In this document: piece after piece, positions 4,695-60,687 of the stretch
Layout of the letters: every line of letters starts with the position of its first letter
How positions within the stretch are numbered: position 1 is the stretch's first letter
DNA from: Mobula birostris
Lineage: Eukaryota
DNA: 64,000 nt
Direction of reading: 5' to 3'
NCBI RefSeq assembly: GCF_030028105.1
Contig: NC_092376.1
Coordinates: 180,024,080 to 180,088,079 of the forward strand
Translations under genes and position numbers: made by a program
Notes under the pieces: model-generated
What the model saw: only the letters and a program-made list of their open reading frames with translations
Told to the model about the DNA's origin: nothing
The model's database searches: none

Positions 4695-4811
4695 GCTTTA
4701 AGAAATGAGCTGAATTCTAATTGGTCAGATTTGTATGCTATATTATCGACCAATCAGAAGCTGAGATGTGACTGGTGATCCGCACGGCCCCCTTCAGTTC
4801 CCAGCCGCCAT
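4695..4811 (+). promoter_or_regulatory. Conserved promoter module of V1
   Basis: GCTTTAAGAAA 4695; ATTGG 4720; CCAAT 4750; TGTGACTGGTGATCC 4767; CCGCCAT 4805. Confidence 0.8.
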
Positions 4812-5032
4812 CGACTAAGATCAGACGCCGTGAAAACTGCAGAGCAGGCAACATTGGAAGATTTAAACGCGGATCTTTTTGAATTGGAGATAAAAAAGAA
4901 CATTTTAATGCAAACAACAGAGTACATAACAAAAGGTACGGATATTTTCTGCATCGCATTTTCTCATTTATATAAATAGCTGTTAAAAGGCATTGTCTCC
5001 AGTCGAAACCATTGGAATGACTTCTCCTGGAA

Positions 5033-7441
5033 ATGAGAGATAATATAAACTGGCTGGTGAAATATCAAATATTTTACTGTTTGATCACCTATTGGGATGT
5101 TGTTTGTGGCCACATTCGTTACTCTGTTCCCGAGGAATTGCAAGTAGGTGCCTTTATTGGAAATATCGCAATTGATTTGGAGTTAAATTTAAAGCAGCTG
5201 TCGGCTCGCAGATTGCGGGTGGCGCCCAGTCCGAGGAAGCGGTATGTTGACGTCAATTTGGAGAACGGAATTTTATTTGTGAAAGAAAGAATCGACCGGG
5301 AGCAACTTTGCGGGCCGAGCACTGAATGTGTTTTATCATTCAACGTTGTGCATGAAAATCCCCTCGGTCTGCACCAGGTGGAAGTGGAAATTCTCGACGT
5401 TAATGACAACGCCCCCAGTTTTCCTAAAAGACAGATCCGCCTGGAAATCTCAGAGAGTCGGGCACCGGGAGCGCGATTCCACCTCGAGGCCGCTCATGAT
5501 CCGGATATTGGAACTAATTCCTTACAGACATACAAGCTCCTTCCCAATGAATATTTCATTCTTGATGTACAAGAACGAGAAAGGATAGGAAAGTTACCAG
5601 TATTGGTGCTGCTGAGGGCTTTGGACAGAGAAAAGATATCGACCCATCAGATAACTCTAGTTGCCGAGGACGGCGGAGTCCCTGTGAGATCGGGGACTGT
5701 CCAGGTAACAATCAAAGTGAACGATGCGAATGACAACTCTCCTGTTTTCTCACAGTCGGTTTATCAGGTGAGTGTGTCGGAATCGGCTCCCAAAGGAACT
5801 CTGATTATTACGTTAAATGCCACTGATTTGGACGATGGTCCGAATGCAGAGATAAAGTACGACCTTAGCAGCCATAATTCAGCTGAGATTCGTGCATTAG
5901 TAGGAGTGAATTCCAAATCTGGGGAAATCATACTGAAAGGGCAGTTAGACTATGAAGAAAGACAATCTTTTGTCATTAATATTTACGCAATCGATAGTGG
6001 GCATCTCCCAATACCCCAGTACTGCGATGTGTTGGTGGATGTAATCGACGTGAATGACAATGCCCCTGATCTGTTGGTGACATCCATGTCAGATGTCGTG
6101 GCAGAAAATGCTCCAGTGGGAACTATTATCGGCCTTATCAGTGCAGAGGACAAGGATTCTGAGAGAAATGGTCAAGTGCAGTGTCGAATTCCGAATGAAC
6201 TTCCCTTTAAGTTAAATTCCTCTATAAATAACAATTGGAAACTATTTATACAACATGCACTGGATCGCGAAACTACCTCGAGGTATGACATTACTGTAAT
6301 TTGTACTGATGCAGGGGATGCTCCCCTAACATCCAAGAAAACGATCCGCGTAGAAGTTTCAGATATAAATGACAACGCGCCAAGTTTTACGCAGTCTGTA
6401 TACTCGGCTAATATAATGGAAAACAACGATATTGGCGATTCGATATTCTCCCTGACAGCTTTCGATCCAGACTCGGGACAGAATTCCCTATTGAACTTTA
6501 ATATCCTGAATTCAACAGCAGCCTCGTATGTCTCCATCAACTCGCAGAGTGGTGTCATATTTGCTCGGAGAACGTTTGACTTCGAGATTTTGAAGACCTT
6601 CCAGATCCAACTTCAGGTGCAGGATTCTGGAGTCCCAGCCCTCAGCAGTAACGTTATAATCGATGTTGTTGTCCTTGATGAGAACGATAATGCCCCGGTG
6701 ATCGTGCATCCTTTACCTGCGTATGGGTCAACGGTAATGGAGACCATGAGCAGGTTTGCTGAACCTGGATACTTCCTTATCAAGGTCTCAGCTACTGACG
6801 CCGACGCTGGTCAGAACGCCCGTCTGTCTTACCACATTTTTCAGGCTACCAATCGCGATCTATTTACTATTTCAGCAGACACAGGTGAAGTTTGGAGTAT
6901 CCGCGGTATTCGGAGTAAAGACGCTTTAAAACAAAGGCTGGTGATTGTTGTGAAAGATCACGGAACGCCCTCACTTTCAGCCACAGTAACCATAGTAATA
7001 TCTGTGACTGGACATGAAAAGATTTTCAGTGCCACCAATTTAAGTAAAGATCGAGAGTTCTCCCCTGATGTGAACCTTCACTTACTCATAGCATTAGGGA
7101 CAACATCTATAATTTTTCTAGTAATTTTAATTATTCTTGCGATTAAAGTTCATAAAAGCAGAACTGGGATGGGATGCCAATACAATTCTCTGAATATCTG
7201 TTGTTGTTTGGAAACAAGGAACTTCCTAAATGGAACTCAAAAAGCCAGCAGAAGTCTTCAAATACCACCGAACTATGTTGAGGTATTCGGAGGTGATCCA
7301 CTTTCCCAGAGTTTCCGTTACGAGTCGTGTTCCACACTGCACAGCGTGAAGAGAGACTACGCAACCTCACACACCTGCGCACCACCTGCAGGGATGCACT
7401 ACGCAGAGAAAAGTACGATGGGGAAAGCAAATCCAGAAATG
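5033..7441 (+). CDS. Clustered protocadherin variable exon V1 (SP, EC1-6, TM, variable cytoplasmic); 3' end uncertain
   Basis: Cadherin motifs (DxNDN, LDRE/LDYE, AxDxG), TM helix and IPPNYVEVFGGDPLSQ tail. The ancestral donor at 7480 is GC and out of frame. A putative in-frame ATG|GTAAGG donor lies at 7441/7442. The unspliced ORF runs to 7696. Confidence 0.88.
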
Positions 7442-9723
7442 GTAAGGCCGAAGTCTGGAATTGCAATTCAAATAACGAGGCAATCTATTTCGCAAAGGAA
7501 AAGTAGTTGTTTGGGGTCATTTCTTTTGGAAAGTAGATCGCCATGTTATTTGAATTACTACATGTTTACTGCGTATTATATTTTAAATAAGTTGCGAAAA
7601 ACCAGGGGCATACATTTGGATGTGCTTGCTGCGAGCACTTCGTTTGAAAGCAGCCGTTTTCCCCATTTTGTATCTTTTAGGTCACTTTGTATTTAAATTC
7701 TGAACGAAGATAGCCATGTACTTATTGGGAAGCGGAAATAAAAAAGAGCGTAATATACTGAAATTGCAGCAACATTTGTGAAGCGAGAAACGAGGGTCCA
7801 CTTTTGTATCTGATGACCCTAAATCGCAACTCGATGTAAGGTGATCAGTCTGGAGTGTCATTTTGCGTTTCTCTCCACAGTGTTGATTAACATAATGAAT
7901 AATTCAATTTGTTTTGGTATACTATTTGGTATCCAAATGATCGAGTATATTTTATCCACTGCCACTTAACATGGAGCTTCGATCTGGACACTACCGACCT
8001 CTGTATGCATTGTGGGAATTACCTATTCATTCTAAAAGAGAATTTGTCAACAAGTATCTGAGTACCTCATTCCTAGTGGTGGAAGGGTATGAAGTGCCCA
8101 GAAACTAGGGGTTTTCCCTCCTCTGACAGCCAACGTATGATTTAACTCATTCACAACTTTCTAATAAATAGTAGTACATCGGAGAATTTGGAGAAATGTC
8201 ACCGGTTAGTCCAATGAATTCTGTGATGGACTGAATGAACAATTAGGTTGTTATGTACTGCTAAACAGGGTGAAGGTTTTGACTTGAATGACGTTGAGTA
8301 TTCTGGGTGTCGTTGCAGTTACCTATCCAGGGATAGATAACTGCAAGAGGCAGAAGACTGGAGGAATCCCTCAGTGCCAAACTTCTGGTGTCTTATCAAA
8401 ATCATAGTATTTATGTATTTACTTTAATAATTTGTAACATGTAGTGAAGGCTTTGTGAATTCATTTCAGGGCAGTATAACTTAATTCGAGGAAAAATGGT
8501 TGTCATACCTTTTGCCAGGTTGTACTATGCCTAGCATTTCTGTAATTTTATAGGAACGTTTCCTAAGTCAAAGCAACAACTTTGTGTAGAGTTTTTTTTT
8601 CCACGTGAGGAAGGACTGCATGCTTATCTGACGACTGTTAAATATAAATTAACATCGTGTGGTCAATAGCGAACATTTCAACACATAATATTGTGCAGCT
8701 ATTTTCCGAAGCCGCTGGGATGGAAGAGCATGAAAGGTCCTAGGGAACTGTTGCAGGCATGGTTTGCATAGGGGATCAGTATTCTGCAACTATCAAAGTC
8801 TTGATTTTTTGAGTCAGATGCAGTGTTTCTCCCATCCACGTTCCCTTGAAATGGTGGGGAGACATCTTCATGAGGTTCTTGTTTTGATAGATCTTCCTCG
8901 AACTTAATGCGTATAGTTTCCAAAAGTTAGATCCAGGATTACTGAAGAAAATAAGATATATGGCTTCCAGTAAAGTTAAAGGTAGAGCAGGGATAAAACC
9001 ACAACAGATTAAAGTTCTTGAGAGAATATAGACTTTCGAGTCGGTAGATTGGCATTGGGAAGATTATCTACTTTTATTCCTGCAGTAATAGCCATAGATT
9101 TCGTCTGATATGCGGAATGGAAGGAAATTCAATGGCAGACGTGATGGCATTCTAGTTTACAGTTTAAGCAAAGTCGCTCTCATTTGCTTTGGCTTTCGGA
9201 AAAGACCATGAAGAATATTTGTGCATAAAACCTTAAGTTATGAAATGTTATGGATAAAATCTACTCGCTATGTATTCTGGACAGCAGGGGTTTAAAACAT
9301 GTTTCGTTATTCTAATGGAAATATTATAGGTGTATTCGTTTAAAGTGATGGAGAAAGAGGTTACTCGTCTTGGTAAAACAGTTCTTTTAGTGTTCTTCTT
9401 TCAATTCTGTTCAAAAGGGGGAAATGCAGTGCTTCATGACTATTAATTAACAGGAGGCCACGATAGTGAAACAATGAAAAAACAACTATACAGAGAGCAT
9501 GCACTGCATACTCGGTAAGAGGATTTAATTTACTGTGTTTGATCGTGTTTCTGAAGGCTTTATACAACACTAGAACTTTAAGATATTCATTGTCTCTAAT
9601 TTTCTCAAACAACTATTGAGGAGCTAAATTTCTACAAAAATCTGAATAATCTACAATACTGAAATTAATTTCAACTGTGCACTATTAAAGGCAACAAACG
9701 AAGCGCCAAATACAGCACCTCTT

Positions 9724-9840
9724 GCTTTAAGAAATCATCTGAATTCTAATTGGGCAGATATGAATGCTGCATTCTCCACCAATCAGAAGCTGAGATGTGA
9801 CTGGAGATCCGCACAGCCCTCTTGAATACCCAGCCGCCAC
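9724..9840 (+). promoter_or_regulatory. Conserved promoter module of V2
   Basis: GCTTTAAGAAA 9724; ATTGG 9749; CCAAT 9779; TGTGACTGGAGATCC 9796; CCGCCAC 9834. Confidence 0.8.
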
Positions 9841-10068: not shown

Positions 10069-12507
10069 ATGAGAGATAATATAAATTGGCTGGTGAAATA
10101 TCAAATATTTTACTGTTTGATCACCACTTGGGATATTGTTTATGGCCAGATTCGTTATTCTGCTCCCGAGGAATTGCAACGGGGTGCCTTTGTTGGGAAT
10201 ATCGCAATTGATTTGGGGTTTGATTTAAAGCAGCTGTCGGCACGCAAATTGCGGGTGGCACCCAGTCCGAAGAAGCAGTATGTTGACGTCAATTTGGAGA
10301 ATGGAGTTTTATTTGTGAATGAAAGAATTGACAGGGAACAGCTTTGCGGACCGAGCCCTCAATGCGTTTTGTCTTTCAACGTTGTGCTTGAAAATCCCCT
10401 CGGTTTGCACCAGCTGGAAGTGGAGATTCTTGATATAAATGACAACTCTCCCAGTTTCCCGAAACAGCAGATCCGGCTGGAAATCTCAGAGAGCAGGGCA
10501 CCGGGAGCGCGATTCCCCCTTGAAGCCGCGCACGATCCGGACATTGGAACTAATTCCTTGCAGACATACCAGCTCCTCCCCAATGAATATTTCGTTGTTG
10601 ATGTACAAGTCCACGATGGTATAGGGAAGTTCCCAGTATTGGTGTTGCAAAGGGCATTGGACAGGGAAACGATATCGACCCATAGGTTAACGTTACTTGC
10701 TGAAGACGGCGGAGTCCCGGTGAGATCGGGCACAGTCCAGGTAACAGTCATAGTGAACGATGCGAATGACAACCCTCCTGTTTTCTCCCAGTCGGTTTAT
10801 AAGGTCAATATGTTGGAATCGGCTCCCATAGGAACTCTGATTATTACATTAAACGCCACAGATTTGGACGATGGTCCGAATGGAGAGATAACGTATGTTC
10901 TCAGCAGCCACAATTCAGCTGCGGTTCGTGAATTAGTTGTCGTGAATTCCAAAACTGGTGAAATCAGACTGAAAAGGCAATTGGATTATGAACAAAGCAA
11001 AACATTTATGATTAATCTGCAAGCAGTCGATAGCGGCCCTTACCCAACGCCCCAGCACTGTCTTGTTTTGGTGGATGTGATTGATGTGAATGACAACGCT
11101 CCGCAACTGTCGGTGACGTCCATCTCGAATTCTGTGACAGAAAATGCTCCAGTGGGAGCTATTGTCGCCCTGCTCAGTGCGGAAGATAAGGATTCTGGGC
11201 AAAACGGGCATGTCGAATGTCGAATTCCGAATCATCTTCCCTTTAAGTTAGATTCCCCTGTGAAGAACAGTTGGAAACTGCTTGTACAGCATGTGCTGGA
11301 CCGCGAGACTACCTCCAGCTATGACATTACTGTGACTTGTACGGACGCAGGGACGCCGCCCCTCACATCCAAAGAAACGATTCAGGTGCAAGTTTCAGAT
11401 GTAAATGATAATGCACCCAGTTTTACGCAGTCTGTATACACGGCAAATGTTATGGAGAACAACGTTATTGGGGGATCCATATTCTCCGTGACAGCTTTCG
11501 ACCCAGACAGAGGACTGAATGCTCGACTGAAATATACTATCCTGAATTCATCCCTAGCCTCATATGTCTCTATCAACTCGCAGAGTGGTGTCATTTATGC
11601 TCAGAGATCGTATGACTACGAGATGTTGAAAAATTTCCAGGTATACGTTGGGGTGCAGGATTCAGGAATCCCACCCCTCACTAGTAATGTTACAATTGAT
11701 GTTGTTATTCTTGATCAGAACGATAATGCCCCGGTGATCGTGCATCCTTTACTCGAGTATGGGTCAGCAGTAATGGAGACAATGAACAGGTTTGCTGAAC
11801 CTGGATATCTCGTTGTCAAGGTCTCAGCTACTGACGCCGATACTGGTCAGAATGCTCGTCTGTCTTACCACATTTTTCAGGCTACCCATCGCGATCTCTT
11901 TACTATTTCAGCAGAAACCGGTGAAGTTTGGACTATCCGTGACATTCAGATCAAAGATGCTCCAAAACAAAGGCTGGTGATTGTTGTGAAAGATCACGGA
12001 ACGCCCTCACTATCAGCCACAGTAACTATAGCAATATCTATGACAGGTAGTGAAACGATATCCAGCGCCACAGGTCTAAGTAAAGATCGTGAGCTCTCTC
12101 CTAAACTGAACTTTTACTTAGTTATAGCGTTAGGGTCGACATCTATAATTTTCCTCGTCATTTTAATTACCCTTGCTATTAAAGTTCATAATAACAGAAA
12201 CGGAATGGAATGCCAATACAATATCTGTTGCTGTATGGAAACAAGCAACTTTCTAAATGGAACGCAAAAGGCCAGTAGAAGCCTTCAGATTCCACCGAAC
12301 TATGTTGAGGTATTTGGAGGTGATCCACTTTCTCAGAGTTTCCGTTACGAGTCATGTTCAACTTTGCAGACTGTCAAAAGGAACTTCACGGCCCCCCACA
12401 AGCATGGACCGTCTGCAGGTATTCCCTTGGCACAGCAGGAACCTCTTGAGAAAGAAAGTGCAGGAATGGTAAACCCTGAAATCTGCAGCTGCCGTACAAA
12501 TAATGAG
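10069..12507 (+). CDS. Clustered protocadherin variable exon V2
   Basis: 813 intact codons, 6 EC + TM, phase-0 donor GAG|GTGAGT at 12507/12508. Confidence 0.95.
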
Positions 12508-14643: not shown

Positions 14644-15247
14644 TAGATCTCGTTTGACAGGGACTGAATGTTAGACATGGTGGCACTCTGGTTTACATTT
14701 TCCTCAAAGGCAAAGTCATTAGTTTTTTACGTAGGAAAAGATCACGGAGAGTCTTTGCATGATAGCATGTAAATTATGAAACGCTATCGGTAAAATCTGA
14801 TTTATATGGCCATTTATCGCGGACAGAAATATTTTCCTTATAGAAATGAAAATACTATTGGCGTATTTGTTTTAAACTGATGCATATTCATCTTGATAAA
14901 GCAGATCTATATTTGTTTTTGCTTTGGATTTTGTACAAGGAATGGGGTGACTGTGCTCCATGAGAATTAATTAACAGCTGGAATCGACTATCAGATCAAG
15001 ATTTTTAATATATATACACAGATCCTATATGTAATGTGAGGATCAGCAAGAGGAGATACTCGGTTGAATTTGATCGCTATTCTCCGGGGTTTATCTCGTG
15101 TATGATATTTAAGATATTCACTGCATCATAGTTTCTGAAACTAAGATTTACGAACAAAGTTTCTGCGGAAATTAGAATCATCTTGATTTCTAAAATAAAT
15201 TTCAATTGTGCACCATTAAATATTATGCGCCAAATTAAACACTTCTT

Positions 15248-15364
15248 GCTTTAAGGAATGAGCTGAATTCTAATTGGTCAGATGTGAATGCTATATTATC
15301 CACCAATCAGAAGCTGAGTTGTGACTGGTGATCCGCGCAGCCCCCTTCAATACACAGCCGCCAT
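15248..15364 (+). promoter_or_regulatory. Conserved promoter module of V3
   Basis: GCTTTAAGGAA 15248; ATTGG 15273; CCAAT 15303; TGTGACTGGTGATCC 15320; CCGCCAT 15358. Confidence 0.8.
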
Positions 15365-15585: not shown

Positions 15586-18015
15586 ATGAGAGACAATATA
15601 TACTGGCTGCTGAAATACCAACTGTTTTACTGCTTGTTCACCTGTTTGGACCCTGTTAGTGGCCAGATTAGATATTCTGTACCCGAGGAATTGCAACTGG
15701 GTGCCTTTGTTGGAAATATTGCAATCGATTTGGAGTTAAATTTAAAGCAGCTGTCTGCTCGTAGTTTGCGGGTGGCGCCCAGTCCGAAGAAGCGGTATGT
15801 TGACGTCAATTTGGAGAATGGAATTCTATTTGTGAATGAAAGAATCGACCGGGAACAACTTTGCGGACCGAACACCGAATGCATTTTATCATTCGACGTT
15901 GTGCTTGAGAATCCCCTCGGTCTGCATCTGGTGGAAGTGGAGATTCTTGATATAAATGACAACGCTCCAAGTTTCCCCAGAAGCCAGATCCGCTTGGAAA
16001 TTTCAGAGATTACGGCACCAGGAGCGCGATTCCCCCTCGAGACCGCGCACGATCCGGATATTGGAGCTAATTCTGTAGAGACGTATCAGCTCCTTCCCAA
16101 TGAATATTTCATTCTTGACTTACAAGTACACGGAGGTATAGGGAAGTTCCCAGTATTGGTGTTGTTAAGGGCATTGGACAGAGAAACGATATCGACCCAT
16201 CAGTTAGTTCTAACTGCCGAAGATGGCGGAGAACCTATGAGATCGGGCAAAGTCCAGGTAAAAATTACAGTGACTGATGCGAACGACAACTCTCCTGTTT
16301 TCTCGCAGTCGATTTATAAGGCCAATATGTTAGAGTCGGTTCCCATAGGAACTCTAATTATTATGTTAAACGCCACAGATGTAGACGATGGCACGAATGG
16401 AGAGATAACGTACGCCCTCGGCAGTCATAATTCAGCTGAGGTTCGCGAATTAGCTGCCGTGAATTCCAAAACTGGTGAAATCAGACTGAAAGAGCACTTG
16501 GACTATGAACAAAGAAAAAGTTTTTTAATAAATATTCAAGCAGTCGATAATGGACATCCCGCAATGTCTGAACATTGTGATGTCCTGGTGGAGGTTATCG
16601 ATGTGAACGACAATGCTCCTGAATTGTCGGTGACGTCGATCTCAAATGACGTGACAGAAAACGCTACAGTGGGAACTACTATCGCACTGCTCCGGGCAGA
16701 GGATAGGGACTCTGGGGAAAATGGACAAGTACAATGTCGAATTCCGAACGAGCTTCCCTTTAAGATGAATTCTTATATAAATAACAATTATAAATTGTTG
16801 GTAGACCGTGCGCTGGATCGCGAAACTACCTCCAGATATGACATCACTGTAACTTGCACAGATGCTGGGAACCCCTCTCTCACATCTAAGGAAACTATCC
16901 GTGTGGAAATTTCAGATGTGAATGATAATGCACCAAGTTTTACGCAGTCTATATACACGATAAATATAATGGAGAACAACATTATTGGAAATTCAATATT
17001 CTCCCTGACAGCTTTCGATCCAGACTCGGGACAGAATTCCCTGTTGAACTTTACTATCCTGAACTCATTTGGAGCTTCATATGTCTCTATCAACTCACAG
17101 ACTGGTGTTATCTTTGCTCAGAGATCTTTTGACTACGAGAAATTGAAAAACTTCCAGTTCCAAGTTAAGGTGCAGGATTCTGGCGATCCCGCCCTCACCA
17201 GTAACGCTACAATTGATGTTGTTATCTTTGATCAGAACGATAACGCCCCGGTGATCGTGCATCCTTTACCCGAGTATGGGTCAGCAGTAATGGAGACCAT
17301 GAGCAGGTTTGCTGAACCTGGATATCTCGTTGTCAAGGTCTCAGCTACTGACGCCGACGCTGGTCAGAACGCCCGTCTGGCTTACCACATTTTTCAGGCT
17401 ACCAATCGTGATCTGTTTACTATTTCAACAGACACAGGTGAAGTTTGGACTGTCCGGGCTATTGAGAGCAAGGATGCTTCTAAACAAAGGCTAGTGATTA
17501 ACGTAAAAGATAACGGAACGCCCTCACTTTCAGCCGCAGTAACCATCGTAATATCTGTGACAGGAAGTGAAACGGTCTCCAGTGCCACCAGTTTAAGTAA
17601 AAATCGCCAGTTCTCTCCCGACCTGAACCTTTACTTAGTTATAGCATTAGGAACGACATCTATAATTTTCCTGATAATTTTAATTATCCTTGCTATGAAA
17701 GTTTATAACAGAACTGGAATGGGATGCCAAAGCAATGTCGGGTGCTGTCTGGATACAAGAAACTTTCTTAACGGGACTCAGAAGGCCAGTAGGAGCCTTC
17801 AGATACCACCGAACTATGTCGAGGTATTCGGAGGTGATCCACTTTCTCAGAGCTTCCGTTACGCGTCTTGTTCAACATTGCAGTCCATGAAGAGAGACTT
17901 CACAGCCCCTCGTGGACCATCTACATCTATTCCTTACACCCACAAGAAACCCACTGGGAAAGAAAGCCCTGGAATGTTATCTACTGAAGACTACAGTTGC
18001 AATACAAATAATGAG
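15586..18015 (+). CDS. Clustered protocadherin variable exon V3
   Basis: 810 intact codons, 6 EC + TM, donor GAG|GTGAGC at 18015/18016. Confidence 0.95.
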
Positions 18016-20875: not shown

Positions 20876-20991
20876 GCTTTAAGAAATTAGCTGAATTTCA
20901 ATTGGTCAGATATGAATATTGTTGAGTCCACCAATCAGAAGCCGAGATTTGACTGGCGATCCGACAGCCCCCTTCAGTACGCAGACGCCAT
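20876..20991 (+). promoter_or_regulatory. Conserved promoter module of V4
   Basis: GCTTTAAGAAA 20876; ATTGG 20901; CCAAT 20931; TTTGACTGGCGATCC 20948; ACGCCAT 20985. Confidence 0.8.
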
Positions 20992-24138: not shown

Positions 24139-24143
24139 TTTTA

Positions 24144-41446: not shown

Positions 41447-41521
41447 GCTTTAAGAAACAAACGGTATTCTGATTGGTTAAAAAGGCCTACCAATCAGCAG
41501 TTGTTATGTGACTGGAGATCC
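41447..41521 (+). promoter_or_regulatory. Conserved promoter module of V7
   Basis: GCTTTAAGAAA 41447; ATTGG 41472; CCAAT 41490; TGTGACTGGAGATCC 41507. Confidence 0.78.
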
Positions 41522-41796
41522 TGACTGTCCTTTTTCTTCCACCATTACATATGAAGACGAGACAATGTGAATTGGATAGCGAGCTGCCTTGGGTTGCAGT
41601 CGTTTGCTTCCGCCTTTCTTTCGTGGATTTTATCACCCAGCTGGAGAAATTCATCAAATAATCCAGACTTTTTTTGAAAGAGAAGGTTTTTTTACAAGGA
41701 AGCCTTTCTTGTGAAGGTATACATCTGCTTTTATCACGGGAATAAACCGAAAGCCACGGTATCGCACGGAAGCCATTGGAATGTTTAACACCGGCG

Positions 41797-47457: not shown

Positions 47458-47596
47458 ATTATTAATGAAAAAGGTCAGCGGAGAATGGCCAGACTGACAA
47501 CAAGGCGACGGTAATTCAAATAACCACTCATTGCAAAAGTGCTGTGCAGAAGAACATCTCTGCATGCACAACACGTCGAACCTTGAAATGGCTGGA

Positions 47597-47696: not shown

Positions 47697-48275
47697 CTTG
47701 AAATGGATGGACTACTTTTTAGTAGAAGTCCACGAACATACACTCATTGACCACTTTATTTGGTACAGCAGGAATATAATAAACTTGCCTCTGAGTGTAT
47801 AAGCACATCCAGATCCATTTAAAATTCGTCCTTTAAGAGCGCAAAGGCACTGTCATAGTTGTAAATGTTCGTTTCCATTTGATTGGCTACTTTCTGAATA
47901 TTATTCATTTCTCTCCTGCCTCAAGAAAGTATTGAAATTATCATTTTTTTCCCTTTTTTCACTTCATTAATATTCACACATTGCTGTATTGCTGAAAGTA
48001 ACATGAAATAATGTTCAGGTTATTTAAAAAAGTTAAATGCTAAGTATTGAATGACAATTAAGACATGTTTTGGCGAATTAAAACTGACTTAGCCTTCAGC
48101 GATGTATAACTCTTGATCAAGTCTGAATTACAAATCATCTCTGTGCAAAATTCACAGTAGAATTTAATATTGCTGTTAAAAGAATCTAAAACCAATGAAC
48201 TTAAATATTTCTTAGATTTTATATTGTACAACTTTAAATATAGACAAAGCCTCCAAGTATTGGGACTACAGTCCA

Positions 48276-48390
48276 GCTTTAAGAAATGCTTAGTGTGGTG
48301 ATTGGCTGAACTTAAGTCATCCTCGTCAGCCAACGAGCGGTTGAAATGTGCCTGGAGATCCTTGCTGTCATACCCTCCCCTTCCGCCATT
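48276..48390 (+). promoter_or_regulatory. Conserved promoter module of V8
   Basis: GCTTTAAGAAA 48276; ATTGG 48301; CCAAC (variant) 48330; TGTGCCTGGAGATCC 48347; CCCTCCCC; CCGCCATT 48383. Confidence 0.78.
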
Positions 48391-48646: not shown

Positions 48647-51088
48647 ATGGGACTTTATAGATTATATTTGCTAATGAAATGGAAACTTTTATGTTTCATT
48701 ATCCCTTCCTGTCAACTAATTTCTGGACAAATACGTTATGCGATTCCTGAAGAATTGAATGCCGGCGCCTTTGTTGGGAATATCGCAGAGGACCTGAATT
48801 TAGATGTAAAACAACTCTCGGTTCGCGGCTTTCAAATCATGCCTGGACCTGGCAAACAGTATATAGATGTAAATTTAGACAATGGGGTTTTACTTGTGAA
48901 AGAAAAAATGGACAGAGAACAGTTGTGTGAGCAGAGCCTCGTTTGCACGTTATCTTTAGAAGCGGTGATTGAAAATCCTCTAAATGTCTATCATTTTCAA
49001 GTGGACATTCTGGACGTAAATGATAATGCCCCGAGATTTCCAGAGAGCCAGTTCCGTTTGGAAATTTTGGAGGTTGCTGCTCCTGGAACTCGATTCGCTC
49101 TGGAATGCGCACAGGACCCGGACATTGGAACCAACTCAGTGCAAAGCTACCAGCTAACAGAGAACGGCTATTTCTCCCTCGATGTCGAGACGCTGGGTGG
49201 CGACGGAAAGGTACCGGTTTTAGTCTTGGAAAGATCGCTGGACAGAGAAAAGGAAAGTGCTCACAGGTTGGTGCTGATCGCTAACGATGGAGGGGTTCCT
49301 CGGAGATCTGGCTCTGCTGAGATACTGATCGTTGTCGGGGATACCAATGATAACGCGCCCGTTTTCTCCCAGTCCATCTACAGGGTCAGTTTGTGGGAGA
49401 ATGCACCGAAAGAGACATTAGTGATAAAACTGGATGCTTCAGATCTGGACGCTGATCTCAATGGCCAGGTAGTGTATTCGTTTGGCAGTCATACTTCGAG
49501 CAGAGTTCGTGAAATATTTCGGCTAGATTCCACAACTGGCGAAATTAGAATTAAGAACAATTTGGACTACGAGAAAAATAGTGTTTTTGAGATTAACGTT
49601 CAAGCGAAAGATATGGGTCCTTACGCAACTCCTGTATACTGTCACGTGGTGGTCAAAATTCTTGATGTGAACGACAACGCTCCTGTGATTACATTGACAT
49701 CTTTATTCAGTCCTGTCAGCGAAGATTCCCTCGCGGGGACAGTGGTGGCTCTGATTACTTCAACGGACAAGGACTCAGCTGAAAACGGGGACGTGGATTG
49801 CGAAATCACACAGGACCTTCCCTTTAAACTGGATTCATCTGTACGTAACTATTACAGACTGGTTACCCAGCACACACTGGATCGTGAACATGTATCAGCC
49901 TACAATGTAACTGTCGTGTGCACCGACGCTGGGGTTCCCCCTCTCACATCCAACAAAACGATCCCGGTGGAGATCTCGGATATAAATGATAACCCACCCC
50001 AGTTTACACAGCCTGTATATACAGCTTATGTAATGGAGAATAACGCCATAGGTGCATCCATTTTCACTGTGACTGCTTTCGATCAAGATTCAAATAGGAA
50101 CGCCGATGTGTCATACTTTATTTTGGAGAGTCAGATTCAGGGCATGTCAGTGGCCGCATATGTCTCCATTAACTCACACAGCGGGGTCATATTTTCGCAG
50201 AGAAGTTTCGACTTCGAGAATCTCAAAAACTTTCAGCTCCTGGTTCAGGCGCGGGATTCCGGATCCCCACCACTTTCTGGAAATGCCTCAGTGGATGTAA
50301 TTATCTTGGATCAGAACGACAATGCCCCCGTGATCTTGCAACCACTACCCGAATTCGGCTCCACTGTGTCAGAGACCATATCCAGGCTCGCAGAACCAGG
50401 TTACCTGGTTACGAAGGTTTCTGCTACCGACGGTGACTCTGGCCAGAATGCTCGCCTTACCTACCAGATTCTTCAAGCTACTGAGGTCGGTCTATTTACC
50501 ATTTCACCGGACACGGGAGAGATCTGGACAATACGCAGTATTAGTAAGAATGACGCTGTCAAACAAAGATTGGTCATCTGCGTTAACGACGATGGATCAC
50601 CGTCACTGACAGCCACCGTGACAATCATTTTGTCTTTAGTTGGAAATGATAGACAAGTGCTGTCGGAACGGAATAGTTTGTCTGAGAATCCAGGGTTTGA
50701 TTTTGATACCAGCTTTTACCTCGTAATCGCTTTAGGGGTCACCTCCTCCGTGTTCCTGGTGATTTTGATTATCCTCGCCGTTAAGGTTCATAGATCCTCT
50801 TCTCTTGGCGCATGTGGTTGTCTTACAGTAAGAAACTCGTTACATGGATTTCAAAGAGGCAATAGAACCCTCCAGATACCACCGAACTACGTTGAGGTGT
50901 TTGGGGGTGATCCACTTTCTCAGAGTTTCCGCTATGATTCATGCTCAAGTTCACGTTCTGTGAAGAGGGATTTCAGGTTGTCCAGCAGCGCATCTACGCG
51001 AAAGGATTTTACTCCGAGTGGCGTTCTGGGAAATGGCGATACTTTACAAACCGCCAAGTCTGCGCAGTGCAGGAATACTGTAAATGAG
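48647..51088 (+). CDS. Clustered protocadherin variable exon V8
   Basis: Paralog-equivalent ATG at 48647 (alternative in-frame ATG at 48638); 814 codons; donor GAG|GTGAGG. Confidence 0.93.
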
Positions 51089-51830: not shown

Positions 51831-52306
51831 ACATAAGCGCATCCAATTCCATTTAAAATTCGTACTTTAAGAGTGCAAGGGCCGTGGGCGAGGTACCATC
51901 GCAATAGTAGATCTTTGTTTTCCGTAGCCTCGCTACCTTTTGAGCATTATTCTCCTCTCACCCTCATCAAGAAAATATTCAAATTGTCAAATCATTGTTT
52001 TCTATTTTCACCTCAGTCATTTGATATTCACGCAGTGCTCTAACGCCAAAAGTACTATGAGATGATGTTCAAGTTATTTAAGAAAGTTAAATGTTAAATA
52101 TGGAACGATAAGTAAGAATGGTTTTGGCGAATCGAACTGATTAAGCATTCAGTGAAATATAATTCTTGATAAAGAATGAATTGCAAATAATCTACGTGCA
52201 AAATATACTGCAGAATTCAATATTGTTGTAAAACAATCTAAACTGGTGAAATTAAATATTTGTTGGATTTATTATTGTACACCTTTAAATATACACAATT
52301 GCGCTA

Positions 52307-52420
52307 GCTTTAAGAAATGCTAGTGTGACGATTGGCTGAACTTCTGTCAGCCTCGTTAGCCAATGAGCGGATCTAATGTGACTGGAGATCCTTGCTGTCC
52401 TACCCTCCCCTTCCGCCATT
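52307..52420 (+). promoter_or_regulatory. Conserved promoter module of V9
   Basis: GCTTTAAGAAA 52307; ATTGG 52331; CCAAT 52360; TGTGACTGGAGATCC 52377; CCGCCATT 52413. Confidence 0.8.
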
Positions 52421-52676: not shown

Positions 52677-55118
52677 ATGGAATTTTATAAATTATATTTG
52701 CTAAGGAAATGGAAACTTTTATATTTCATTATCACTTCCTGGCAAGTAATTTCTGGACAAATACGTTATTCGATTCCTGAAGAATTGAATGCCGGTGCCT
52801 TTGTAGGGAACATTGCAGAGGACCTGAATTTGAATATAAAGGAATTTTCGGCTCGCGGCTTTCAAATTATGCCTGGACCTAGCAAGCAGTATATTGATGT
52901 AAATATAGACAATGGGGTTTTATTTGTGAGGGAAAAAATCGACAGGGAACAGTTATGTGAACGGAGCCTCGCATGTACGTTATCAGTGGAAGCGGTGATA
53001 CAGAATCCTGTAAATGTGTATCATTTTCACGTGGATGTTTTGGACGTAAATGACAATGCCCCGAGATTTCCAGACAGCCGCTTTATTTTGGAAATATCAG
53101 AGGTCGCTGCTCCTGGAACCCACTTCGCTCTGGAGTGCGCACAAGACCCGGACGTTGGAACCAACTCTGTACAAAGCTACCAGTTACTAGAAAATCTTTA
53201 TTTCTCTCTCGATGTTGAGAAGGGCGTTGGCGGCGAAAAACTACCGGTTTTAGTGTTGGAAAGACAGCTGGACAGAGAAAAGGAAACTACCCACAGGGTG
53301 GTGTTGATAGCTAAGGATGGAGGGTTTCCTGAGAGATCTGGCACTGCTGAGATATTGATCATTGTTGAGGATGCCAATGACAACGCGCCTGTTTTCCCTC
53401 AATCTGTCTACAGGGTCAGTTTGCCAGAGAATGCACCCAAAGCAACATTAGTGATTAAATTAGATGCCGCCGATTTGGATGCTGGAGTCAATGGGCAGAT
53501 AGTGTATTCGTTTAGCAGTCACACTTCAAATACAGTTCGTGAAATGTTTGGGCTGGATTCCAAATCTGGCGAAATCAGAATTAAGAATAATTTGGACTAC
53601 GAGGAAAACAGTGTTTTTGAGATAAATGTCCAAGCAAAAGATATGGGTCCTAACGCAACTCCTGTGTATTGTCAGGTGGTGGTTGACATTGTTGATATGA
53701 ACGACAACGCTCCTGTGATTACACTGACATCTTCCTTCAGTCCAATCCGCGAAGATTCACCCCCGGGAACTGTAGTGGCTCTCATCAGTTCAACAGACAA
53801 GGATTCAGCTGAGAACGGGGACCTGGATTGTGAAATCACAAAGGAACTTCCGTTCAAACTAGAGTCATCCTCACGTAACTATTACAGACTGGTTATCTGG
53901 GAGACACTGGATCGTGAACATGTATCAGCCTACAATGTAACTGTCGTGTGCACCGACGCTGGGGTTCCCCCTCTCACATCCAACAAAACGATCCCGGTGG
54001 AGATCTCGGATATAAATGATAACCCACCCCAGTTTACACAGCCTGTATATACAGCTTATGTAATGGAGAATAACGCCATAGGTGCCTCCATTTTCACTGT
54101 GACTGCTTTCGATCAAGATTCAAATAGGAACGCCGATGTGTCATACTTTATTTTGGAGAGTCAGATTCAGGGCATGTCAGTGGCCGCATATGTCTCCATT
54201 AACTCACACAGCGGGGTCATATTTTCGCAGAGAAGTTTCGACTTCGAGAATCTCAAAAACTTTCAGCTCCTGGTTCAGGCGCGGGATTCCGGATCCCCAC
54301 CACTTTCTGGAAATGCCTCAGTGGATGTAATTATCTTGGATCAGAACGACAATGCCCCCGTGATCTTGCAACCACTACCCGAATTCGGCTCCACTGTGTC
54401 AGAGACCATATCCAGGCTCGCAGAACCAGGTTACCTGGTTACGAAGGTTTCTGCTACCGACGGTGACTCTGGCCAGAATGCTCGCCTTACCTACCAGATT
54501 CTTCAAGCTACTGAGGTCAGTCTATTTACCATTTCACCGGACACGGGAGAGATCTGGACAATACGCAGTATTAGTAAGAATGACGCTGTCAAACAAAGAT
54601 TGGTCATCTGCGTTAACGACGATGGATCACCGTCACTGACAGCCACCGTGACAATCATTTTGTCTTTAGTTGCAAATGATAGACAAGTGCTGTCAGAACT
54701 GAACGGTTTGTCTGCGGATCCCGGGTTTGCTTCTGATACCAGCTTTTACCTCGTAATCGCTTTAGGGGTCACCTCCTCCGTGTTCCTGGTGATTTTGATT
54801 ATTCTCGCCGTTAGGGTTCACAGATCCTCTTCTCTTGGCGCATGTGGTTGTCTTACAGTAAGAAACTCGTTACATGGATTTCAAAGAGGCAATAGAACCC
54901 TCCAGATACCACCGAACTACGTTGAGGTGTTTGGGGGTGATCCACTTTCTCAGAGTTTCCGCTATGATTCATGCTCAAGTTCACGTTCTGTGAAGAGGGA
55001 TTTCAGGTTGTCCAGCAGCGCATCTACGCGAAAGGATTTTACTCCGAGTGGCGTTCTGAGAAATGGTGATACTTTACAAACCGCCAAGTCTGCGCAGTGC
55101 AGGAATACTGTAAATGAG
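52677..55118 (+). CDS. Clustered protocadherin variable exon V9
   Basis: ATG at 52677; 814 codons; donor GAG|GTGAGG. Confidence 0.95.
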
Positions 55119-55949: not shown

Positions 55950-56433
55950 CTAAGCACATCTAATTCCCTTTAAAATTCGTCCTTTCAAAGGCCGTAGTGT
56001 GGGGTACCATCGCAGCTGTAAACGTTACTTTCCTCTTGATTCGCTACCTTTTGAAGTTTATTCAAAATTCCTCCACCAGCCCCCACCTTTAATCAAGAGC
56101 GTATTGAAATTGTCAATTCATTGTTTTTTTTTTCTTTTCACCGCAACAATTTTATATTCACATCCTGCTGTAATGCCCAAAGTACTATGAGGTCATATTC
56201 AAGTTATTTCAGAATGTTAAATGTTAAATATAGAATGATAAGTACGACTGGCTTTGCGAACAGAACTGTTTAAGATTCAGTAAAATATTACTCTTGATTT
56301 CGACTGAATTGCAAATGAACTAAGTGTAAAATGCACAAAAACTGTAATATTGCTGTAAAACAATCTAGAATTGCGAAATTAACTGAGAGTTAGATTTTAT
56401 ATTGTACAACTTAAAATATAGACAATTGCGCCA

Positions 56434-56547
56434 GCTTTAAGAAATGCCTAGTGTGGTGATTGGCTGAATTTATGTCAGCCTCTTTAGCCAATGAGAGGCT
56501 GTAATGTGACTGGAGATCCTTGATGCCCTACCCTCCCCTTCCGCCAT
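56434..56547 (+). promoter_or_regulatory. Conserved promoter module of V10
   Basis: GCTTTAAGAAA 56434; ATTGG 56459; CCAAT 56488; TGTGACTGGAGATCC 56505; CCGCCAT 56541. Confidence 0.8.
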
Positions 56548-56803: not shown

Positions 56804-59245
56804 ATGGAATTTTATAAATTATATTGGCTGATGAAATGGAAACTTTTATATTGTTTTATCCCTTCCTGGCAAGTAATTTCTGGACAGATACGTTATTCGA
56901 TTCCTGAAGAATTGAATGTCGGCGCCTTTGTTGGGAATATCGCAGAGGACCTAAATTTGGATATCAAAGAACTTTCATCTCGCGGCTTTCAAATTGTGAC
57001 AGGACCTAGTAAGCAGTATATTGATGTAAATTTAGACAGCGGGGTTTTAGTTGTGAAGGAAAAAATGGACAGGGAACTGTTGTGCGAGCAGAAACTCGCC
57101 TGCACGTTATCTCTGGAAACGGTGGTTCAAAATCCTCTAAATATCTATCATATTCAAGTGGACATTCTGGACGTAAATGATAATGCCCCGCGTTTTCCTG
57201 AGAGTCGCATTAGGTTGGAAATATCGGAGGTGGCTGCCCCAGCAACGCGCTTCGCTCTGGAGTGCGCACAGGACCCGGACGTTGGATCCAACTCGGTACA
57301 AAGCTACCAGCTCGTGGAGAACGGCTACTTCTCTCTCGATGTTGAGACGCGGGGTGGCAGCGAAAAATTACCGGTTTTAGTCTTGGAAAGACAGCTGGAC
57401 AGAGAAAAGGAAAGTAACCACAGGTTGGTGTTGATAGCTGCGGATGGAGGGGTTCCTGAGAGATCTGGCACTGCTGAAATATTGATCGTTGTTGAGGATG
57501 CCAATGACAACGCGCCTGTTTTCCCGCAACCTGTCTACAGGGTCAGTTTGCCAGAGAATGCACCCAAAGGAACATTAGTGATTAAATTAGATGCCGCTGA
57601 TTTAGATACTGGAGTCAATGGGCAAATAGTGTATTCGTTTAGTAGTCATACTTCAAATAGTGTTCGTGAAATGTTTTGGCTGGATTCCAAATCTGGCGAA
57701 ATCAGAATTAAGAATAATTTGGACTACGAGGAAAATAGTGTTTTTGAGATAAATGTCCAAGCAAAAGATATGGGTCCTTACGCAACTCCTGTATACTGTC
57801 ACGTGGTGGTCAAAATTGCTGATGTGAACGACAACGCTCCTATGATTACACTGACATCTTTATTCAGTCCAATCCGCGAAGATTCCTCACCGGGGACTGT
57901 GGTGGCTCTGATCAGTTCAACGGACAAGGATTCAACTAAAAACGGGGATTTGGATTGCGAAATCCCAAAAGGTCTTCCATTTAAACTAGTTTCAACTTTA
58001 CAAAAATATTATAAACTGGTTATCTGGGAGACACTGGATCGTGAACATGTATCAGCCTACAATGTTACTGTCGTGTGCACCGACGCTGGGGTTCCCCCTC
58101 TCACATCCAACAAAACGATCCCGGTGGAGGTCTCGGATATAAATGATAACCCACCCCGGTTTACACAGCCTGTATATACAGCTTATGTAATGGAGAATAA
58201 CGCCATAGGTGCATCCATTTTCACTGTGACTGCTTTCGATCAAGATTCAAATAGGAACGCCGATGTGTCATACTTTATTTTGGAGAGTCAGATTCAGGGC
58301 ATGTCAGTGGCCGCATATGTCTCCATTAACTCACACAGCGGGGTCATATTTTCGCAGAGAAGTTTCGACTTCGAGAATCTCAAAAACTTTCAGATCCTGG
58401 TTCAGGCGCGGGATTCCGGATCCCCACCACTTTCTGGAAATGCCTCAGTGGATGTAATTATCTTGGATCAGAATGACAATGCCCCTGTGATCGTGCAACC
58501 ACTACCCGAATTCGGCTCCACTGTGTCAGAGACCATATCCAGGCTCGCAGAACCAGGTTACCTGGTTACGAAGGTTTCTGCTACCGACGGTGACTCTGGC
58601 CAGAATGCTCGCCTTACCTACCAGATTCTTCAAGCTACTGAGGTCGGTCTCTTTACCATTTCACCGGACACGGGAGAAATCTGGACAATACGCGGTATTA
58701 GTAAGAATGACGCCGCCAAGCAAAGGTTGGTCATCTGCGTTAAGGACGATGGATCACCGCCACTGACAGCCACCGTGACAATCATTTTGTCTTTAGTTGG
58801 AAATGATAGAAAAGTGCTGTCGGAACGGAATAGTTTGTCTGAGAATCCAGGGTTTGCTTCTGATACCAGCTTTTACCTCGTAATCGCTTTAGGGATCACC
58901 TCCTCCGTGTTCCTGGTGATTTTGATTATTCTCGCCGTTAAGGTTCATAGATCCTCTTCTCTTGGCGCATGTGGTTGTCTTACAGTAAGAAACTCGTTAC
59001 ATGGATTTCAAAGAGGCAATAGAACCCTCCAGATACCACCAAACTACGTTGAGGTGTTTGGGGGTGATCCACTTTCTCAGAGTTTCCGCTATGATTCATG
59101 CTCAAATTCACGTTCTGTGAAGAGGGATTTCAGGTTGTCCAGCAGCGCATTTACGCGAAAGGATTTTACTCCGAGTGGCGTTCTGGGAAATGGCGATACT
59201 TTACAAACCGCCAAGTCTGCGCAGTGCAGGAATACTGTAAATGAG
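56804..59245 (+). CDS. Clustered protocadherin variable exon V10
   Basis: ATG at 56804; 814 codons; donor GAG|GTGAGG. Confidence 0.95.
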
Positions 59246-59981: not shown

Positions 59982-60084
59982 AACCTTGAAGTGGACGTGC
60001 TATAGCAGTGGAAGACCACGAACATACACTCAGTGGCCACTTTATTAGGTACAGGAGGAACCTAATAAAGTAGCCGCTGTGTGT
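59982..60084 (+). mobile_element. Tc1-like 3' remnant carried in the duplicated unit
   Basis: CACTCAGTGGCCACTTTATTAGGTAC...CCTAATAAAGTAGCC. Confidence 0.7.
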
Positions 60085-60573
60085 CTAAGCACATCTAATT
60101 CCCTTTAAAATTCGTCCTTTCAAAGACCATAGTGTGGGGTACCATCCCAGGTGTAAACGTTACTTTCCTCTTGATTCGCTACCTTTTGAAGATTATTCAT
60201 TATTCCTCCACCCACCCACCCCACCTTTAATCGACAGAGTATTGAAATTGTCAATTCATTGTTTTTTTTCTTTACACCGCAACAATTTTATATTCACATC
60301 CTGCTATAATGCCCAAAGTACTATGAAGTCATATTCAAGTTATTTCAGAATGTTATATGTTAAATATACAGAACGATTAGTACGACTAGCTTTGGCGAAC
60401 TAAACTGTTTAAGATTCAGTAAAATATAACTCTTGATTTCGACTGAATTGCAAATGAATTAAGTGTAAAGTGTACTGTAAACTGTAATATTGCTGTAAAA
60501 CAATCTAGAATAGTGAAATTAACTGAGAGTTAGATTTTATATTGTACAACTTAAAATATAGACAATTGCGCCA

Positions 60574-60687
60574 GCTTTAAGAAATGCCTAGTGTGGTGAT
60601 TGGCTGAATTTATGTCAGCCTCTTTAGCCAATGAGAGGCTGTAATGTGACTGGAGATCCTTGATGCCCTACCCTCCCCTTCCGCCAT
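60574..60687 (+). promoter_or_regulatory. Conserved promoter module of V11
   Basis: Identical to the V10 module at offset +4140. Confidence 0.8.

Follow-up and report, generated by a model that had tools for sequence, protein, structure and literature searches.

Clustered protocadherins serve in neuronal self-recognition. In mammals each of their variable exons has its own promoter with a CSE (pCBS), whose features are a CGCT box and CTCF-cohesin looping to HS5-1-type enhancers. Only four mammalian genes (alpha-c2, beta-1, gamma-c4 as well as gamma-c5) are CSE-less. In the elephant shark a Pcdh-nu subcluster is said to have been described by Yu et al. in 2008. The CGCT element has already been reported in the elephant shark cluster (PMC2926608). 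In Xenopus tropicalis, the 22 variable exons pcdh-gamma2 15-36 lie side by side without a CSE and have another conserved motif of 13 bp, about 200 bp 5' of the ATG (PMC4978886).

In the window considered here, a 64-kb stretch from the elasmobranch Mobula birostris, there are 11 variable exons, all from the nu subcluster of protocadherins (Table 1). The cluster totals 69 exons, most of them preceded by a shared scaffold. The 11 open reading frames (815-887 aa counted from the ATG) lie in tandem, are about 2.4 kb long and encode six EC repeats and a TM segment; protocadherins are their best structure matches, and the splice donor GAG/GTGAG is present in 10 of the 11 exons. Constant exons lie downstream (C8, 180106743-180168515), with 74, 56 and 83% identity to those of elephant shark nu17. 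Exon architecture and constant exons both fit clustered protocadherins of the nu subcluster, to which the window genes are assigned.

Table 1. Variable exons, promoter modules and exonic CTCF-like matches in the window. For promoters the last column gives the starts of the upstream element (YTGYRCA..TAAA), GCTTTAAG, ATTGG, CCAAT, GATC and the CCGCCAT-type site, in that order.
Feature	Position	Strand	Parts and remarks
V1 promoter	4648..4811	+	4648, 4695, 4720, 4750, 4777, CCGCCAT 4805; decayed CSE slot 4713-4749; TGTGACTGG 4767; C-rich tract
V1 variable exon, coding part	5033..7441	+	ends at putative new in-frame donor; ancestral donor altered
V1 exonic CTCF-like match	5368..5386	+	ATG+335, 13.6 bits, CTCF matrix
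V1 exonic CTCF-like match	5474..5492	-	ATG+441, 12.8 bits, CTCF matrix
V2 promoter	9675..9840	+	9675, 9724, 9749, 9779, 9806, CCGCCAC 9834
V2 variable exon	10069..12507	+	ATG to GAG/GTGAG donor
V3 promoter	15206..15364	+	15206, 15248, 15273, 15303, 15330, CCGCCAT 15358
V3 variable exon	15586..18015	+	
V4 promoter	20826..20991	+	20826, 20876, 20901, 20931, 20958, ACGCCAT 20985
V4 variable exon	21215..23653	+	
V5 promoter	27518..27670	+	27518, 27563, ATTCG 27588, 27618, 27645; no YY1-like site
V5 variable exon	27901..30327	+	
V6 promoter	32076..32242	+	32076, 32128, 32153, 32181, 32208, CCACCAT 32236
V6 variable exon	32508..34958	+	
V7 promoter	41400..41545	+	41400, 41447, 41472, 41490, 41517, CCACCAT 41539
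V7 variable exon	41797..44250	+	
V8 promoter	48224..48389	+	48224, 48276, 48301, CCAAC 48330, 48357, CCGCCAT 48383
V8 variable exon	48647..51088	+	
V9 promoter	52275..52419	+	52275, 52307, 52331, 52360, 52387, CCGCCAT 52413
V9 variable exon	52677..55118	+	
V10 promoter	56402..56547	+	56402, 56434, 56459, 56488, 56515, CCGCCAT 56541
V10 variable exon	56804..59245	+	
V11 promoter	60542..60687	+	60542, 60574, 60599, 60628, 60655, CCGCCAT 60681
V11 variable exon	60948..63389	+	

The initial annotation described a module before every exon, and the module is real: a regular expression for the whole of it gives 11 forward and no reverse matches in the window, and none in 200 approximate dinucleotide shuffles. 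GCTTTAAG(A/G)AA occurs exactly 11 times, always on the forward strand and 338-380 nt 5' of an ATG. As described, ATTGG starts 25 nt after the start of GCTTTAAG (24 nt in V9; ATTCG in V5), CCAAT is present (CCAAC in V8), and a TGTGACTGGnGATCC-like motif starts 17 nt past the start of CCAAT in 11/11 promoters, exact in seven and with one mismatch in V4 and in V8, two in V6 and four in V5. Overlooked at the time was a further conserved element, YTGYRCA-N2-7-TAAA (mostly N4-5), found in all 11 promoters 33-53 nt 5' of CTTTAA.

Judged from sequence, this module is not a new element but the cluster-wide promoter with its CTCF site decayed. The order throughout the cluster is YTGYRCA..TAAA, GCTTTAAG, a CTCF part, CCAAT (position 0), GATC (+27) and a C-rich box (about +36), with some 54 nt between GCTTTAAG and CCAAT; the CTCF part comprises an upstream module at -37, a core ending in CGCT at -9, and then GTCTA. 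I compared 40 upstream genes with a clade of 26 distal nu genes that includes the 11 of the window, using CCAAT as a hand-chosen anchor, so that counts of CCAAT itself hold by construction. In 35/40 upstream genes a classical CGCT element (the CSE, a CTCF site) has CCAAT as its 3' flank, with CGCT lying exactly 9 nt 5' of the CCAAT. As had been claimed, the window promoters have no CGCT box: the position is empty in 11/11 of them and filled in 0/26 of the clade, which counts as one event on one branch and not as 26 independent observations. Read in the same way, the upstream CTCF module TG[CT]A[AG]T at -37 is found in 28/40 upstream genes and 0/26 of the clade, whereas ATTGG, an inverted CCAAT box lying in the vacated footprint, is found in 24/26 of the clade against 7/40, and a YY1-like CCAT site in 20/26 against 0/40. 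GCTTTAAG and GATC at +27 are each present in 26/26 clade promoters and in 30/40 upstream ones.

A CSE matrix built from this genome's own CSEs (leave-one-out over 35 genes) gives a median of +33.6 bits in the 35 CSE genes and of -20.7 when the corresponding slot of the 26 clade genes is scored. The best score per clade promoter (600 nt, both strands) averages -3.8, as against -3.9 in shuffles, which bears out the absence of a CSE/CTCF site from these promoters. Of 29 matches to the exact CSE pattern in the genome, 28 fall in the cluster's upstream part, and the 26-gene block has none. The check proposed in the initial annotation, a search with the JASPAR CTCF matrix, turns out not to distinguish CSE-bearing from CSE-less promoters, since a JASPAR-type matrix gives even the intact CSEs of the cluster no more than 1.3 bits. 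CTCF binding by the ray CSE is itself presumed, from the CGCT box and where it lies, from motif geometry and from 11 nt that match the primer of a human HS5-1 construct.

What surrounds the lost site is positionally homologous, with GCTTTAAG, CCAAT, GATC and the C-rich box at the offsets seen in CSE genes. Relics of the 3' end of the CSE are found in the clade, GTTCA or CTCCA in 12/26 promoters and GTCTA in one (L046). The distance from GCTTTAAG to CCAAT is 54-55 nt in 23/25 CSE genes and varies from 43 to 55 nt in the clade, while that from GCTTTAAG to ATTGG stays at 24-25 nt in 26/26; length changes are therefore confined to the lost footprint. The rigid spacing once claimed thus holds outside the lost CTCF site but not between ATTGG and CCAAT, whose starts are 30 nt apart in V1 to V5, 28 in V6, 18 in V7 (where the old footprint is about 12 nt shorter) and 29 in V8 to V11. 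A search for an NRSE/RE1 at the module found 5-13 mismatches over the 15 specified positions of the fugu protocadherin NRSE consensus in all 26 genes.

The comparison with mammals is then as follows. In the ray, too, every variable exon has a promoter of its own, set about as far from the ATG; ray upstream genes have CGCT at the same place, and the window module is the positional homologue. In contrast, the 26 distal nu genes, set against four CSE-less genes in mammals, are without CGCT, core or upstream module, tolerate deletions at that place and have an inverted CCAAT. The Xenopus block resembles the clade in being CSE-less with another conserved motif; in the ray the motif that remains is identifiable as the common scaffold flanking a lost CSE.

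The reading I prefer, at a probability of about 0.6, is that the window promoters represent the ancestral clustered-protocadherin proximal promoter minus its CTCF site. The history of the sequence is very probably right; the NF-Y-based mechanism stands slightly better than even. By the sequence evidence the CTCF part decayed once, on the stem of the 26-gene clade, the flanking scaffold being kept under selection, an inverted CCAAT box becoming fixed within the vacated footprint and a CCGCCAT site arising downstream. In the proposed mechanism the forward box, and as a rule also the inverted one, would be occupied by NF-Y, with an Sp/KLF factor on the C-rich box, YY1 on the CCAT site and other factors on GCTTTAAG and G.GATC, which match no nameable partner motif. 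Jointly these would keep every promoter competent although it carries no CTCF loop anchor.

NF-Y boxes typically lie 60-100 nt upstream of the transcription start and have the flank consensus RR..SRG. The proposal that both boxes are of NF-Y type is sustained by their flanks, which score 4.08/5 in the forward box (26 genes) and 4.0/5 in the inverted box (24 genes), against 1.99/5 over 298 exonic CCAAT. NF-Y is known to use pairs of CCAAT boxes 26-30 bp apart as a platform, in promoters with Sp1 sites, and the reported minimum between boxes for double binding is 19 bp (PMC4889920). Likewise, 9/11 window promoters have two boxes (28-30 nt apart) with a C-rich box nearby; they differ in that the boxes are divergent, V7 falls under the minimum and V5 has one box. 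The clade's YY1-like site may be compared with human alpha-6, whose SSE-CSE probe has a YY1-bound site at its 3' end, 3' of the CSE (PMC3333863).

The assertion that no CTCF core is present stands for the CSE slot; elsewhere there are weak CTCF-like matches, in the C-rich tract and the exons. With a CTCF matrix, 7/11 window exons have a match of at least 8 bits in their first 1.2 kb; V4 shares the ATG+335 site of V1 (at 21550, 14.9 bits), and the reverse ATG+441 site recurs in V3, V4 and V7 (42241, 13.1 bits). It is conceivable, though unlikely, that the CTCF anchor has moved into the exons, forward at ATG+335 in the subclade of L044-L055 and V1-V4 and reverse at +441 and +990 in others, preserving a mammal-like logic. 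The clade's exonic matches exceed a codon-shuffle null (21 versus 10.6 at 8 bits or more, 8 versus 2.0 at 12 or more, counts attained by 0/100 shuffles); at 12 bits there is none in 31 CSE-bearing genes. The +335 site reaches at least 4.8 bits in 12/16 genes of the subclade, and L004-L006, also without CGCT, have at +453 a site that resembles a forward eCBS (9.4-12.6 bits). However, these matches are inherited rather than independent, are spread over three positions and two orientations, have A at matrix position 15 and show no upstream module (none was seen at V1 5368..5386); at +335 the scores of V5-V11 and L056-L058 are negative, and in 12/26 clade genes the first 1.2 kb hold no match of at least 8 bits. 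A Pcdh-alpha-type forward eCBS would lie about 700 bp downstream of the CSE; at the homologous FPLE codons all 26 clade genes have forward scores of 3.6 bits or less by this matrix, which gives 9.4-12.6 bits in L003-L007 and L022.

Less probable still is a bidirectional promoter, the minus strand offering a GC box, two CCAAT boxes and a TATA-like CTTAAAGC. Upstream antisense RNA would here replace the exon-born antisense lncRNA of Pcdh-alpha, a reading compatible with the preferred one. The divergent CCAAT pair and the invariant GCTTTAAG-ATTGG distance speak for it, but TTAAAG makes a poor TATA box, and GCTTTAAG is common in upstream promoters that mostly lack ATTGG. Pcdh-alpha promoters are activated by antisense transcription, according to bioRxiv 10.1101/360206, which also favors it.

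The initial annotation itself proposed a rigid, subcluster-specific NF-Y composite with a partner on ACTGGAGATCC that selects the promoter, which is improbable. CCAAT and GATC are indeed 27 nt apart in 26/26 clade promoters, and of 15 matches to the composite pattern in the whole genome 14 lie inside the cluster. Yet one of these is the CSE-bearing L041, and the same spacing beside intact CSEs in upstream genes speaks against the idea of a separate promoter logic. The partner motif keeps its 17-nt position in the window, but over the 26 clade members only G.GATC is invariant (TGTG is found in 18/26, TGG.GATC in 20/26). Nor would such an element choose among promoters: being common to all and without gene-specific information, it can license but not discriminate.

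I consider it improbable that an inverted CTCF core makes up the C-rich tract and that CTCF thus binds the promoter in reverse orientation. Reverse scores of 7.7-11.9 bits at CCAAT+32/33 occur in 4/26 genes (L047, L054, V1 with 8.8 and V4 with 9.1 bits), but the other 22 score at most 3.6, and the tract lies at the same offset in CSE-bearing and teleost-like promoters, which suits an Sp/KLF box better.

The 26 distal nu genes make up a single clade (SH-aLRT 100), whose sister group is the CSE-bearing L040-L043 (support 97). Elephant shark nu8, nu13, nu15 and nu17 nest within the clade, as do shark proteins, so the loss of the CSE is probably ancient. It is very improbable that the clade, in the manner of Xenopus gamma2 15-36, expanded from the CSE-less gamma-C4/C5 lineage and shares its loss with bony vertebrates. 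The clade does share the 3'-most position in the cluster, and the Xenopus block groups with mouse gC4 and gC5 (PMC4978886); the ray clade does not, pairing with ray CSE-bearing nu genes, while bony-vertebrate sequences form their own group (97) with one long teleost branch outside. An AU test on 28 rows (quick tree, without alpha-C or Xenopus rows) rejects the grouping of the clade with gC4/C5 (p=0.003), from which the two losses are judged independent. Three of eight teleost-like contigs examined (L082, L083 and L086) agree in the offsets of upstream module, CGCT and C-rich box, but TCCAT or CCGTA replaces CCAAT and GATC is absent at +27; that part of the scaffold may therefore be chondrichthyan only.

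The likeness of the modules is not a product of recent duplication, since four-fold degenerate sites have diverged (mean identity 0.43 over the clade; invariant columns 4/80 across the 11 exons and 0/44 across the 26 genes) while none of the 26 departs from GCTTTAAG, CCAA and G.GATC (17 motif positions), nor from the A that follows GCTTTAAG. Neutral similarity through recent duplication or gene conversion is thereby already largely refuted, despite the young copies V8-V11 (four-fold identity 0.89-0.96, two pairs tested), for the duplications are older than the shark-ray split and two pseudogene promoters within the block have both CCAAT and GCTTTAAG broken.

If these promoters did lose their CTCF site as preferred above, choice among the 26, which have the module in common, must come from elsewhere: from enhancer contact through cohesin extrusion that runs past the promoter without stalling, from closeness to the constant region, and from methylation state. 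Compared with the four CSE-bearing nu genes located ahead of the same constant exons, their expression would then be more distance-biased or C-type-like and would respond less to loss of CTCF. The clade would serve as a natural test case for the switching on of such genes without a DNA-looping anchor.

Eleven protocadherin variable exons (V1-V11) lie in tandem in the window, all on the + strand. Searching with the first cadherin repeat yielded 73 matches, of which 69 fall in a single stretch of C8, the contig on which the window occupies G000:C8:180024080-180088079 (see table), and 4 kb was taken around each of the 58 loci outside the window (L001-L058) and around two controls on C5 (L059-L060). 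The best protein matches come from rays, then from sharks and elephant shark. Because the constant exons downstream of the window match those of elephant shark nu17, the window is part of the nu subcluster, which begins at L039 and which PMC2764143 describes as lacking a bony-vertebrate ortholog. L039, the first exon past the mu constant region, has neither CCAAT nor the CGCT-box promoter element that serves as a CTCF site (CSE), and its position is like that of mammalian beta-1. Two extra exons belong to the nu constant region, whose last exon has two reading frames, in agreement with two C-termini seen in ray proteins.

Coordinates of features in the window and along C8
Feature	Position	Remark
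Example of YTGYRCA..TAAA	window 4648-4662	
V1 donor region; ancestral donor now GAG|GCAATC	window 7436-7485	V1 out of frame with the ancestral donor
V1 in-frame donor ATG|GTAAGG	window 7441	could rescue splicing
V8-V11	window 48276-63389	young four-copy expansion; V10 and V11 proteins 97% identical
Minus-strand open frames between exons	window 1216-1830, 37255-38627	presumably LINE reverse-transcriptase fragments, by resemblance
Contig from another organism (run X5)	window 15144-15587	whole V3 promoter, 8 differences
Contig joint	window 4845 to 15558	non-canonical ends; excluded from analysis
Cadherin-repeat matches (69)	C8 177.8-180.1 Mb	
L039	G000:C8:179667906	
Last constant exons	C8 177850928, 179640984, 180168327	
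Extra nu constant exons and last-exon reading frames	G000:C8:180151286, 180163634, 180168321	
Reverse-strand CTCF-like matches	G000:C8:180111400, 180294491, 180296078	14.3-16.9 bits; within the constant region and past it

An initial annotation had proposed that every variable exon in the window is served by a rigid, NF-Y-anchored composite promoter with no obvious CTCF element, the module comprising GCTTTAAG, ATTGG (an inverted CCAAT box), CCAAT, GATC, and, in most cases, a C-rich tract and a YY1-like CCAT site. The anchor GCTTTAAG(A/G)AA does occur 11 times, once ahead of each exon, and the spacings of 25 nt (anchor to ATTGG) and 17 nt (CCAAT to the motif containing GATC) hold as given. The whole-module pattern finds 11 forward matches in the window, none in reverse, and none in 200 shuffles. 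It is not rigid throughout: the distance from ATTGG to CCAAT is 30 nt in V1-V5, 28 in V6, 18 in V7, and 29 in V8-V11, so the module has a rigid half on either side of a flexible stretch. The exons of V1-V4 are covered by sequencing contigs from three studies, whose RNA nature is a guess (three runs guessed to be RNA, one of unknown kind); cover is absent between exons and low upstream of position 4860, and such assembled contigs are uninformative as to the start of transcription.

Promoters were aligned on a hand-chosen CCAAT, from which offsets are counted, and I compared the 26 distal nu genes (L044-L058 and V1-V11) with 40 genes upstream (within L003-L043), leaving out L001, L002, and L039, in which the module could not be anchored. 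The upstream promoters have the same scaffold as those in the window, plus TGCAG/ATT at -37 and TTTGTGTCGCTGTCTA leading into CCAAT. The spacing between this upstream module and the core fits the known geometry of CTCF. The position of the CGCT box is the one that PMC7811963 gives for the mammalian CSE, and according to PMC2926608 a CGCT element had already been found in the elephant shark cluster. CGCT at -9 is present in none of the 26 distal genes vs. 35 of the 40 others, and the upstream module in none vs. 28. Both GCTTTAAG and GATC at +27 are found in all 26 (30/40 in the others), ATTGG in 24 (7/40), the CCAT site in 20 (0/40), and an element YTGYRCA..TAAA in 22 (15/40, and 1 of 1497 background windows), all these contrasts amounting to a single evolutionary event. 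In the window, this last element precedes GCTTTAAG by 33-53 nt in 11 of 11 promoters.

A matrix built from the CSEs of this genome separates the two groups by a median of about 54 bits and, applied to the 600 nt upstream of the distal genes, finds on average nothing above the level of shuffled sequence. An exact CSE pattern has 29 matches in the 4-Gb genome, of which 28 belong to the cluster's upstream part. Changes of length within the distal group are confined to the interval between ATTGG and CCAAT, within the old footprint. Two other measures do not speak to the loss: a JASPAR-type CTCF scan, which had been suggested as a check, is uninformative because intact CSEs themselves score 1.3 bits or less, and the number of mismatches to CCASYAGRKGGC, the core sought initially, is 2-4 in both groups. 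A reading of GATCCGGACAGC as an NRSE was rejected. The ray element shares GTGTCGCTGTC with a human HS5-1 construct primer (PMC7087399), the one mammalian sequence set beside it. The distal promoters have lost the CSE, kept the scaffold, and acquired both the inverted CCAAT box and the CCAT site. The module seen initially is real and under selection, but it was partly misread: it is the standard promoter of clustered protocadherins in a form without the CSE, carried by a large and old clade.

In a tree of 70 rows (L012 left out), the 26 genes form one clade (SH-aLRT 100), whose sister is the four CSE-bearing nu genes L040-L043 (97). When 33 chondrichthyan homologs were added (FastTree), proteins of sharks and six of elephant shark, four of the latter named nu, nested within the clade, which by parsimony suggests that the CSE was lost before the holocephalan split. 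Between subgroups, four-fold sites have almost reached saturation (identity 0.24-0.43), yet the motifs are invariant, and they are broken in two pseudogene promoters of the block, observations that together argue for purifying selection. At least four pseudogene fragments lie among the intact exons (L161, L163-L166, L169); L161 keeps a perfect CSE and has lost the GATC part, and CCAAT is broken in L164 and L165. CGCT has decayed separately in L004-L006, L020, and L023.

With 34 bony-vertebrate exons in the tree (gC3, gC4, and gC5 labelled), the clade stays with the other ray genes, and its orthology to gC4/C5 was rejected (AU test against joining that group, p=0.003). A metagenome scan gave 80 loci, of which the 8 at 45-48% identity, on teleost-like contigs, were examined. 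CGCT stands at the best CSE-matrix match in four (L082, L083, L086, L088) and is missing there in the other four; three of the 8 match the ray offsets for the upstream module, CGCT, and C-rich box, with neither CCAAT nor GATC at +27.

The clade might still be tied to CTCF from within its exons. CTCF-like matches there exceed a codon-shuffle null (21 vs. 10.6; at 12 bits, 8 vs. 2.0), which counts against a CTCF-less reading, and at 12 bits the exons of 31 CSE-bearing genes have none. The matches are spread over three inherited positions and two orientations; no match is seen in 12 of the 26 genes. Similarly counted are the C-rich tracts, 4 of 26 scoring 7.7-11.9 bits on the reverse strand. Both scores use a JASPAR-type CTCF matrix; it gives intact CSEs at most 1.3 bits and therefore neither confirms nor excludes unusual CTCF sites. 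Where CSE-bearing genes give way to CSE-less ones, two reverse CTCF-like matches about 730 bp from each other resembled an HS5-1 pair; they were dropped because they lie within a high-copy repeat (19,576 candidates).

A forward CTCF-like site (9.4-12.6 bits by the JASPAR-type matrix) occurs in the FPLESA codons of L003-L007 and L022 at ATG+450/453. Its place, about 650-700 bp farther downstream than the CSE slot, agrees with the distance reported for the alpha eCBS in mammals. It is present in L004-L006 despite their decayed CGCT, and may predate the alpha cluster. The 200 kb downstream contain 9 CTCF-like matches of at least 13 bits, 6 of them reverse and several with repeat-like shared flanks, and the scan for such matches identified no enhancer there. 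Three reverse-strand matches (see table) are candidate enhancer anchors.

CSE-less promoters have precedents. They are described for four mammalian genes (PMC7811963, PMC6881428, PMC13395409) and, in Xenopus, for a 22-gene block that has an unnamed 13-bp motif (PMC4978886); the ray clade is convergent with the Xenopus case. Searches judged by titles and the beginnings of abstracts found no report that shark or ray nu genes have lost the CSE, nor any of NF-Y at protocadherin promoters, with Yu et al. 2008, the likeliest source, outside their scope.

Both CCAAT boxes have NF-Y-type flanks (4.08 and 4.0 of 5 vs. 1.99 for exonic CCAAT, by the NF-Y consensus), and from its motifs the module would bind NF-Y, Sp/KLF, and YY1. 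NF-Y double boxes are known at 26-30 bp and none closer than 19 bp (PMC4889920), so V7, with boxes 18 nt apart, could hold only one NF-Y. YY1 has been observed to bind beside a human CSE in vitro (PMC3333863). The promoters may be licensed without a loop anchor of their own, and the module would leave the choice among them to enhancer contact, distance, and methylation. The fullest reading is that in cartilaginous fishes a large stochastic-type array has had no CTCF anchor at all since before holocephalans and elasmobranchs parted, that an inverted NF-Y box took the physical place of CTCF in the promoter, and that YY1 or NF-Y took over contact with the enhancer. I regard it as tentative, with roughly one chance in three.

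The CSE/CTCF model explains alternate-exon choice in mammals and says little about CSE-less promoters or other promoter factors. In this cluster, one set of constant exons follows both the four CSE-bearing genes and the 26 that lack the element. Their promoters are homologous and the difference lies chiefly in the CTCF footprint, which provides a built-in control for the part that a promoter CTCF site plays in choice. Comparing the two promoter classes by subtraction also brings out short motifs that are deeply conserved. The value is limited by the Xenopus and mammalian precedents, and the elephant shark paper may already note the gap. If the fullest reading above is true, clustered protocadherins would be able to choose among promoters that have no CTCF of their own, and the sites GCTTTAAG and G.GATC, both conserved, would point to the factors that license these promoters.
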